A stretch of DNA of 64,000 nt, taken from positions 12,323 to 76,322 of the forward strand of contig CADCIN010000002.1 in NCBI GenBank assembly GCA_902801525.1. Reading direction: 5' to 3'. The stretch comes from an uncultured Erysipelotrichaceae bacterium (GTDB taxonomy: Bacteria > Bacillota_I > Bacilli_A > RF39 > UBA660). Of this stretch, positions 92 through 3,000 are shown piece after piece. Position numbers and translations under genes: made by a program. Every line of letters begins with the position of its first letter. The stretch's first letter is position 1. The notes beneath the pieces are model-generated. The model was not told the origin of the DNA, ran no database searches, and saw only the letters and a list, made by a program, of their open reading frames with translations.

Positions 92-3000
92 TAGACAGAC
101 AGAAAGACAGACAGAAAGACAGACAGACAGACAGACAGACAGACAGACAGACAGACAGACAGACAGACAGACAGACAGAATTATTAGCAGATAAAATTCC
201 AAAAATAAATCAAGAAAAAAAGTCAAAAAAAAAGCGACTTCATTTTGCGTGGAATAAACTAAAATTTAAGAAGAAACATTCTTTCATGAGTCAAAATACT
301 GAAGAAATTGAAATTTTAGATTTTGATGAACCAACAAAATTTGAAACTAGAAAGAAACCTAAAATTAAATTTCCAAACATTGTTATTAAAAACAAATTTA
401 AATTTGCCACCACTCTTGTTGGCTCACTAGCAGTTTTAATACTTATATTGTCAGCTGTAACCGGAGCGAATGTTATAAAAGTAAGTGCTAAGAAATTCTT
501 AGAAGGTCTAGGAATCTATACAGAAGAAGTAAAAAAAGTAGAAATCCAATCAAATGATTATGATAATCAAGGCTCTTGGCATATTGATAAATCAGCTAAA
601 TGGACGGGTTCAAATACAGCACAAGTTACTTTTGATTTAAATTCTATAATGAAAACAGGAGATCATTATAAAGATGTTGTATTAGTTTTAGATATATCTG
701 GTTCTATGTCAGGAGATAAGATGACGAAAGCAATTAGTGATTCTAAAGAGTTAGTTAGTTATTTGCTATCTAATAGTCAAAACAGAATAGCAATCGTTAC
801 ATTTGATAGTACTTCCACAGTAATTTCAACTTTTTCAAATGACAAAGATGATTTGTTATCAAAATTAGACACTATCACAACAACAGGATGTACAAACTAT
901 AATGCTGCACTTCAAAACGTAGACGTTGTTATGAATGGATATACAAAAGAATCAAATCGAGACGTTGTAACATTATTCTTAACAGACGGATATCCAAATG
1001 AAGATACACCAAATCAAGTTGGTACTTTTGAGGTTTTAAAAGATAAGTACCCTTATATGACGGTTAATGGTGTTCAATATGAAATGGGAACAGATATCAT
1101 AGACGAAATAAAACAAATAACAGATTCTCAATGGGTAGCTGACCAATCAACACTTAATAATGTATTATTTGACGCTTCCATTTCTCCAATAGTTTATGAA
1201 AAATTTGTTGTTACAGATTTTGTTCATGATGACTATTTTACGATTGGTTCGGTGAGTGATATTAAAGTTACAATGGGAACGGTAACATTAGAAGATGATT
1301 CTGGAACTCCAAAAATTACATGGAATTTGGGAAAAAACTCATATATGACTGGTGGAAATGCTAAGATGACAATTAATCTTACATTAAAACCACAATATGT
1401 TGGTAGTGAGGGATTTTATCCAACCAACAAAAGAGAAAATATAAATTATAAATTACCAGAAGATACAGAAAAAAATGTAAATAGTACGAACACTCCAGTA
1501 TTAAAAAACAACTATGAAGTTATTTATGATACGAATACACCAACTGGATGTACACTTTCTGATATTGCAAGTGAGAAACATTTTATATATCAAAATGTTA
1601 CCAAAAAAACAAATGAACTATCTTGTGAGGGATATTTGTTTAAAGGTTGGGAAATTGATGAAAATGATGCAAAAGATATAACAATAGTAAATGATGACAT
1701 ATTTGTAATGCCTGAACATGATGTAACAATTAGAGCTACTTGGACTAGACAGTCCATTGTCAAATCGATGGATGGAACAGTTCATGAAAAGACAACTTTA
1801 TACAAAGTACTACAAAACGAAGCTGCAACTGGAACATATGCCAAAGAATATACAGGAAATCATCAAGATTCAATGAATGCTTCAAAATCAACACAAAAGA
1901 TCTATTACTATTATGGTTCAAGTGCAACGAACGGAACAGCAATATTAGATAAGAATAATGTACTTTTTGCTGGACAATGTTGGCAAATGATAAGAACAAC
2001 CGATACTGGTGGAGTTAAGATGATATACAATGGGGAAGCAGTAGATAACCAATGTTTATCTACACGTGGTACGCATGTAGGATATGCATCTAGAACAAGC
2101 CAAAACTTAGCATCAAACTATTGGTATGGAACAGATTATACCTATGATAGTGCAGCAAAAACATTTAAAGTAAGTGGTACAACAGAACAAACTACATGGA
2201 ATGCAACAACAGGACCAGGACTAGTTGGAAAATATACTTGTAAATTAACAAGTGAAGATGGTTCATGTTCAACCTTATATTTAGTAGAGTCATATTACAA
2301 TACGACGAGCGCATATGTAATACCATTAAACTCAAATTCCAATTATTCACAATTCGGAACCTTACAATTTAATGCAAGTTATAATTCACCAACTTATGTT
2401 GGATACATGTACGGAGATGTTTATGCATACAGTTCAACAAATGGAAAAACAAGTCAAAGTTTTACAACAACACAAACTATGTTACAATCAACATCTTTAG
2501 GAACATCTTATTGGTATGCAGATAATGTTGATTATGGAACGTCGACAGCCGGTCGATATTCACTAGTAGATCCATATCAAGTAAGTGGTACAACAGATTA
2601 TCCTAATTTGGTAGGAAAATATACATTTAGAAGTTCGAGCCAAACAAATACATCAACTAGTGTTTACTACATTGCAGCAGTTAATAATACAACAATGTAT
2701 TATAAACAACTACAAAGTGGTAACTTATTGTCTGCCTATGAACCAATAGTATTTGGAGATTCCATCACAGATAACGGAGATGGTACATATACAATTAATA
2801 ATCCAACAAATGTGACATTATCTGATTGGTATACAAATTATGCAAATTATAAAGAAAAATATACATGTAATGATAGTAGTACAACATGTGCTTCTCCAAG
2901 ATATACTACAGCTACAACATCCACGAACTACACGTATATAAATGCAGGCGAGAAGATAATGATTGGAAAGACAAGAAGTGGATTAACTCTTACGGATACA

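Follow-up and report, generated by a model that had tools for sequence, protein, structure and literature searches.

Does the (GACA)15 tract at the 5' end of a surface-protein gene act as an expression switch, and does this switch sit on the same gene whose 3' end is rewritten by a diversity-generating retroelement (DGR)? Both questions are raised by a 64,000-nt stretch of an uncultured rumen Erysipelotrichaceae bacterium (contig CADCIN010000002.1; hereafter the window), in which a 1282-aa open reading frame (ORF), the DGR target gene, carries the tract within its first codons. A first-pass annotation of the letters had described the arrangement as a candidate phase-variation switch. We find that the (GACA)15 run, located within ~30 codons of the start of the DGR target gene, is probably a simple-sequence contingency locus, which is the explanation that best combines the evidence given below. 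That the window strain really switches among three states at high frequency is a narrower claim, which we favour by a smaller degree. The anatomy of the locus, its coding status, the length polymorphism among strains, the in-silico frame effects and the activity of the DGR are established here.

Anatomy and uniqueness of the repeat

The elements at the 5' end of the gene are the following, where related contigs are referred to by the labels L001 to L010.

51..62, + strand: alternative initiation module, i.e., Shine-Dalgarno (SD) sequence GGTGA at 51-55, 4 nt spacer and ATG 60-62 (window frame 3); duplex energy -10.0 kcal/mol
68..81, + strand: main initiation module, i.e., SD sequence AGGTGA at 68-73, 5 nt spacer and ATG 79-81, whose frame is continuous with the gene here; duplex energy -9.8 kcal/mol
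79..3927, + strand: DGR target gene, 1282 aa, with Lys-rich N-terminal tail, anchor, VWA domain, repeat-rich middle and C-terminal variable repeat (VR)
94..117, + strand: two GACAGACAGAAA units coding DRQK DRQK, the older, interrupted part of the repeat, where L006 carries an unexpanded GACAGACAGAAAGATAGAGAG in the shared frame
118..177, + strand: perfect (GACA)15 coding (DRQT)5, the predicted slippage-prone element
185..194, + strand: TAG (185-187) and TAA (192-194), which terminate the two alternative frames shortly after the tract (8 and 15 nt)
286..288, + strand: internal in-frame Met without SD sequence (duplex energy -2.2 kcal/mol; Arg in L004, Leu in L006), a rival start judged unlikely

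The coordinates of the 60-nt run and of the two GACAGACAGAAA copies directly 5' of it are as first annotated. Tandem Repeats Finder reports both as a single array (93-179, period 4, 21.8 copies) with a score of 160, which is by far the highest in the window. A regular-expression scan of both strands revealed no second microsatellite of similar length within the 64 kb, which have a GC content of 25.8%. With regard to other types of contingency loci in the window, there are no G/C runs of at least 6 nt, and the sole long homopolymer is one T11. The (GACA)15 run is not attributable to chance. At the position of the tract, the relative L006 encodes MKIHLDRQKDREIELL by GACAGACAGAAAGATAGAGAG in the same frame as the window; this unit is the ancestor, prior to expansion, of the window's repeat.

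Repeat number among relatives

We compared seven contigs from different samples, i.e., the window and its relatives L001, L002, L003, L005, L009 and L010. Their upstream flanks are identical in 78/78 positions and their downstream flanks in 294-300 of 300. The tracts in between differ as follows.

Window: two GACAGACAGAAA units and (GACA)15, 84 nt
L001 and L005: (GACA)3, 12 nt
L002, L009 and L010: (GACA)2, 8 nt
L003: (GACA)5, 20 nt

That is, the seven contigs show four alleles (2, 3, 5 and 15 GACA units) between conserved flanks, which provides the comparison of related strains that had been proposed along with the first annotation. Beyond the tract, the adjoining 2.1-2.2 kb of the gene align without any gap between the window and L001 or L005. 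The tract is therefore where the indels of this locus concentrate, and compared with the flanking sequence it is hypermutable. Nine contigs of independent origin, from a variety of samples and collections, have a (GACA)n at exactly one shared site. A scan of the GTDB genomes with the flank pattern matched one contig, from the rumen metagenome-assembled genome RUG13444 ('uncultured Erysipelotrichaceae bacterium'), which is L005. Among all of the ~60 more distant homologues, the N-terminal tetrapeptide repeat is absent; the GACA tract is lineage-specific.

Start codons and coding status of the tract

A change in repeat number shifts the reading frame only if the tract is translated. To rate the possible start codons, we computed SD strength as the duplex energy with the 16S 3' end, with the 35 gene starts in the window and random ATGs as references. 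The median is -9.5 kcal/mol for the gene starts and -2.5 kcal/mol for the random ATGs. Both ATG60 (-10.0) and ATG79 (-9.8) are on par with the gene-start median, while ATG286 (-2.2) is at background level. The module AGGTGA, 5 nt, ATG79 had already been recognized in the first-pass annotation, as had the open frame from 79 to the stop codon at 3925-3927; both were verified. The next in-frame Met of this frame is at 286.

The same annotation considered the open stretch before Met286 unlikely by chance. Based on the window sequence alone, this argument is modest, since no frame of the GACA tract can encode a stop and thus only the 35 codons outside the tract (181-285) are informative. These lack a stop in 2.7% of mononucleotide shuffles, and 5.9% of the 35-codon windows in the target gene's two wrong frames are likewise without a stop. 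Much stronger support comes from comparative evidence from three lineages. The segment between the tract and the conserved LDFDEP motif measures 138 nt in the window, 123 nt in L004 and 129 nt in L006, all of which are multiples of 3. It shows no in-frame stop in any of the three, while the other frames hold 2-7 stops each. Furthermore, Met286 is replaced by Arg in L004 (75% amino acid identity in the target) and by Leu in L006; in the latter, the equivalent of ATG79 is the sole Met upstream of the membrane anchor. Comparative and computational evidence therefore both place the tract inside the translated frame, downstream of the initiation codon. The question whether the tract is coding or part of a 5' untranslated region, which had been left to transcript mapping, is thus decided in favour of coding by the SD energies, the frame conservation in three lineages and the non-conserved Met286. 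Taken together, we are highly confident that the tract is coding and that its length changes would shift the frame in the way described next.

Frame consequences of repeat number

We simulated translation from ATG60 and ATG79 for n = 10-20 GACA units. In silico, ATG79 yields the full-length protein if n mod 3 = 0, as is the case for n = 15 here, while for n mod 3 = 2 it is ATG60 that yields the full-length protein. For n mod 3 = 1, translation from both starts ends at TAG185 or TAA192, i.e., +8 and +15 nt after the tract. The first-pass annotation had stated that the gain or loss of one unit would frameshift the gene in an ON/OFF design. This holds insofar as any change by a number of nucleotides that is not a multiple of 3 puts ATG79 out of frame. 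It does not hold as a plain ON/OFF scheme because of the second start, ATG60: the loss of a single unit exchanges the start codon and still gives full-length protein, and only a gain (n mod 3 = 1) leads to the OFF state.

In the (GACA)2 and (GACA)5 alleles, i.e., in L002, L003, L009 and L010, the frame of ATG60 is continuous with the gene. L009 in particular combines (GACA)2 with an intact 1047-aa ORF, a reverse transcriptase (RT) and a diversified VR, which argues that the ATG60 start is functional.

The two SD-ATG modules (51-81; GGTGAAAAAATG and GGTGATAAAAATG) are 19 nt apart, a spacing that places ATG60 and ATG79 in different frames. Both L007 and L008 lack the 19-nt module and have one SD-ATG left (L007 1636-1652). 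The pair looks like a short duplication or, conversely, L007 and L008 look like the product of a deletion between the copies. Whether two or three expression states are available depends on this 19-nt indel.

The mechanism we propose would work as follows. Transcription would start at a conserved promoter further upstream, such that the leader, both starts and the tract are all on the mRNA. Ribosomes would start at either strong SD-ATG module, ATG60 or ATG79, in different frames. Slipped-strand mispairing would alter the tract in steps of 4 nt. With n mod 3 = 0, translation from ATG79 would pass the (DRQT)n codons and continue along the gene; ATG60 would take over this role at n mod 3 = 2, and at n mod 3 = 1, no full-length protein would be made. 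The likely outcome is two ON levels and one OFF level. A high switching rate, the relative expression of the two starts and an adaptive benefit are what we infer beyond the frame effects themselves.

Promoter and transcription

An extended -10 promoter, TTGAAT-17-TGnTAYYAT, is conserved just upstream of window position 1, namely in L001 (123-151), L002, L005, L009, L010, L006 and L007. Transcription is thus likely to start ~20-30 nt upstream of window position 1, as far as promoter conservation can tell, which would place both start modules and the tract on the mRNA. Homology among three unrelated upstream contexts (L001 type, L006, L007) starts exactly at the TTGAAT -35 hexamer, as if the cluster moves together with its promoter. 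In L002 only, an unrelated patch of ~22 nt lies directly upstream of the -35 hexamer.

A second promoter-like site, TTGACA-17-TACACT at 63-91 (10/12 matches), was rejected as main promoter. There are 4 promoter-like hits in this region compared to 4.7 expected in shuffles, L007 and L008 have lost the -35 hexamer of the site, and the better promoter is conserved further upstream. We also rejected transcriptional phase variation, i.e., a repeat within a promoter spacer or one that changes regulator binding: at least ~120 nt separate the conserved promoter from the tract downstream of it, and the site at 63-91, which L007/L008 lack, does not extend into the tract.

Alternative explanations

The best-surviving alternative is that the tract is a neutral, lineage-specific microsatellite expansion in a dispensable, disordered cytoplasmic tail. 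Here, the tract would be coding but would not serve adaptive high-frequency switching, and the dual starts would be a prior accident that buffers frame changes. We consider this unlikely, yet it deserves the most weight among the alternatives. Several observations favour it or weigh against a contingency locus. The long tract is found in the window only, while the six related contigs have 2-5 units. Tracts of the latter size are presumably stable; such lengths are essentially stable in the Haemophilus model. Of the seven contigs, the window alone reaches a tract length for which tetranucleotide repeats are known to be hypermutable; De Bolle et al. are said to have found in 2000 that the mutation rate of tetranucleotide tracts scales with tract length. 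The ~60 more distant homologues have no N-terminal repeat at all, and the length of the N-terminal tail varies widely among homologues. The tail is probably dispensable, and translation from Met286, should it occur at all, would likely still yield a functional product. In addition, the ATG60 module is already present in the unexpanded L006, where, read from the sequence, it would give only a short upstream ORF. The predicted OFF-frame allele is seen in 0/7 contigs, which is not significant for four distinct alleles ((2/3)^4 = 0.2). Finally, the window starts inside the leader such that the promoter is visible in the related contigs only.

On the other hand, a perfect 60-nt tetranucleotide run is unique in the 64 kb, four length alleles contrast with invariant flanks, and both alternative frames stop 8 and 15 nt past the tract. 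The frame consequences hold whether or not they are adaptive.

Also opposed to neutrality is the repeated, independent inactivation of the gene in relatives, which suggests selection on its expression. The target ORF is broken in 4/6 short-tract relatives (L001, L002, L003, L010), with window positions 2262-2345 and ~1990-2000 affected. L001 has a 70-nt deletion (L001 2371) and L002 one of ~80 nt (L002 2366); these are different deletions with a common left breakpoint after window position 2262, and both are bounded by TCA or TTCA microhomology. The alignment of L003 has gaps that add up to 25 nt, and the end of its ORF is shifted in frame (L003 ~2090), while L010 carries a CAA-to-TAA nonsense codon (L010 2169-2171). 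Part of these breaks may stem from errors of short-read metagenome assembly, a further reservation about the contingency reading, but the nonsense codon of L010 is hard to explain in this way. If the breaks are real, they are circumstantial evidence that loss of the target protein is repeatedly favoured, a situation in which a reversible switch pays off.

A far less probable alternative places the tract in an untranslated leader, with translation from Met286, such that repeat length affects at most mRNA stability or leader structure. In its favour, the promoter-like TTGACA-17-TACACT at 63-91 would start transcription at the tract, a Met286-started protein keeps the anchor and all domains, and many homologues have short N-termini. 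However, this promoter candidate occurs no more often than in shuffles and has lost its TTGACA in L007/L008; ATG286 has no SD sequence and is Arg or Leu in L004 and L006, respectively; and the frame upstream of it is open in three lineages with indels of multiples of 3 only. Nor does the leader resemble an RNA element, a candidate we rejected: its predicted fold is not more stable than that of shuffles (z = +1.1), and its Rfam matches are limited to sub-threshold eukaryotic microRNA/small nucleolar RNA noise.

Least probable of all is an assembly or sequencing artefact, i.e., that the window's long tract or the relatives' short tracts are erroneous: tandem repeats are error-prone in assembly and the related contigs are short-read metagenome scaffolds, several with suspicious internal deletions, but nine independent contigs have (GACA)n at one identical site, the 8-20 nt tracts fit into a single k-mer of the size usual in (de Bruijn) assemblers and should therefore not collapse, and the window's tract leaves the 1282-aa ORF full-length and in frame.

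The retroelement and its activity

The second part of our question concerns the 3' end of the gene, where the following elements are found.

3732..3851, + strand: VR at the 3' end of the target gene
4164..4283, + strand: template repeat (TR), with all VR mismatches at TR adenines
4428..4841, + strand: 137-aa ORF between TR and RT, a candidate accessory (Avd-like) gene by position, without Pfam/NCBIfam match
4825..6321, + strand: DGR RT (Pfam RVT_1, 1e-19), encoded next to the TR

VR and TR are 80% identical, and every mismatch is at a TR adenine. The VRs of the window, L001, L002 and L005 are mutually different along the stretch that matches TR adenines, while L001 and L005 each have a TR with a single-position difference from that of the window. 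A VR that varies across strains next to a nearly constant TR implies that the DGR is active; on this pattern, we regard it as evidently real and at work. The claim of the first-pass annotation that the gene's 3' end is diversified by a DGR is hence borne out by the adenine-only mismatches, the RT and the strain-variable VRs, and its wording of a switch 'stacked' on hypervariation is accurate at the level of anatomy. DGR rewriting of the C-terminal ligand-binding VR is a DNA/RNA process and would not depend on translation of the target. VR diversification and expression state should therefore be independent of each other.

Between the target's stop codon and the TR, there are two perfect hairpins with 4-nt loops (3961-3986 with an 11-bp stem, 4045-4078 with a 15-bp stem), which may be terminators or DGR cis elements. 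The 15-bp hairpin is conserved in L001 and L005. In L004, positions 3027-9019 form a cluster homologous to window positions 79-8395, in which a VWA target-like gene is directly followed by the Flg_new/DUF11 gene; TR, accessory gene and RT are all missing there. The cassette of the DGR was thus either inserted into, or deleted from, a surface-protein cluster that is conserved in other respects.

Target protein and genomic context

The target protein has a Lys-rich N-terminal tail of ~110 aa and one hydrophobic segment (~aa 110-132; nt 406-474), followed by a VWA domain (aa 199-313), a Cys- and Tyr-rich repeat region and the C-terminal VR. By the positive-inside rule, it is predicted to be an anchored surface protein with its N-terminus inside and its C-terminus outside. 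An exact look-up found no protein on record that is identical to the window's target ORF.

Downstream of the DGR (6254-11393), the window encodes a Flg_new/InlB-repeat, SHIRT and DUF11 wall protein, two BsaA-family SipW-dependent matrix proteins, a SipW signal peptidase and a sortase. These genes place the target in a putative surface-fibre or biofilm-matrix cluster. The window as a whole is Gram-positive chromosome, with a penicillin-binding protein with PASTA domain, LytR-CpsA-Psr and SpaA-fold proteins; it also encodes an AddAB-like pair (PD-(D/E)XK nuclease and UvrD-family helicase) and a valS fragment. There are no tRNA genes in the window. A phage origin was rejected, as both a megablast of 1-8400 against a phage collection and a viral-contig pattern scan were without match.

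A large serine recombinase (13407-15065) is directly followed by a valS that lacks about the first 316 codons (15166-16815). In L007 (1-1650) and L008 (1-1830), a valS 3' end (84% identical) is located immediately upstream of the target-gene promoter. The gene order suggests that the DGR/surface-protein cluster may be part of an element that has integrated into valS and brings along a substitute for the 3' part of this gene. The left junction of this putative element falls outside the window.

Meaning and comparison with known systems

Of the strategies by which bacteria hypermutate their surface proteins in a programmed way, two are known best, DGRs and simple-sequence contingency loci, and these are usually treated apart from each other. 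A possible but tentative reading of the locus is that a single surface adhesin of a Gram-positive is varied on two tiers: at its 5' end, (GACA)n would switch expression among three states, namely start A, start B and off, independently of the DGR mutagenesis of the ligand-binding 3' end. If this is true, the lineage could hide the protein reversibly while its binding site is rewritten and later re-expose a new variant. The irreversible knock-outs in the strains with 2-5 units would then be the footprint of a like selection where the reversible switch was lost. A gene with both layers would mean that a commensal separates display, governed by a reversible stochastic switch, from binding specificity, governed by retroelement mutagenesis, and it raises the question whether VR diversification continues in a phase-OFF gene.

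It would furthermore be the first DGR target shown under phase control by a simple-sequence repeat (SSR), and it would exemplify contingency loci of the tetranucleotide type in Erysipelotrichaceae of the rumen. Tetranucleotide phase variation, which is best characterised in Haemophilus and Neisseria, would thereby be extended to an uncultured Gram-positive rumen lineage, at a locus where long-read metagenomes could measure switching in situ. Among the top-ranked literature matches (15-20 per search), we found no pairing of a DGR with an SSR, slipped-strand mispairing, a contingency locus or phase variation on one gene, which is not proof of absence.

Known DGRs include those of Bordetella phage BPP-1 (Mtd), Legionella (LdtA) and Treponema (TvpA). 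They share with the system described here the adenine-specific TR/VR mismatches, an RT beside the TR, a surface-exposed binding protein whose C-terminus carries the VR, and a TR that is conserved while the VR varies. The gene studied here additionally has a proposed SSR switch at its opposite end, a pairing absent from the top-ranked literature matches.

With regard to the switch, the opa genes of Neisseria carry CTCTT repeats in the coding region of the leader peptide that turn translation ON or OFF. As here, the repeat is coding, has a unit length not divisible by 3 and is located in an N-terminal, non-functional part of a surface adhesin. In contrast, the opa unit is a pentamer within a cleaved signal peptide, and the genes form a multigene family that is not diversified by a retroelement.

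The use of more than one start has its counterpart in licA (lic1) of Haemophilus influenzae, where alpha, beta and gamma starts are located upstream of a CAAT tract (PMC2992063). In both cases, more than one start codon immediately precedes a tetranucleotide tract and repeat number selects the start, i.e., there are more than two expression states. The differences are the repeat unit (CAAT vs. GACA) and the gene product, which is a choline kinase for licA, as well as the two starts found here, each with its own strong SD sequence.

Closest with regard to the repeat itself is H. influenzae lgtC (HI_0258) with its 5' (GACA)n, for which 8-38 units are given for 16 genomes (PMC2651432), a range that includes the 15 units of the window. 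Both loci share the GACA unit, a tract that follows shortly behind the start codon and encodes a hydrophilic tetrapeptide repeat at the N-terminus, and a unit number that is polymorphic among strains. They differ in that lgtC encodes a cytoplasmic lipopolysaccharide glycosyltransferase of a Gram-negative pathogen, while the gene here encodes a membrane-anchored VWA surface protein with a VR in a Gram-positive rumen commensal, and in that switching was shown by experiment for lgtC while it is predicted from sequence here. By analogy, the locus would mechanistically be a textbook translational contingency locus, with unit and position as in lgtC and multiple starts as in licA. Its new elements are the host, i.e., an uncultured rumen Erysipelotrichaceae bacterium, and a DGR target as the controlled gene.

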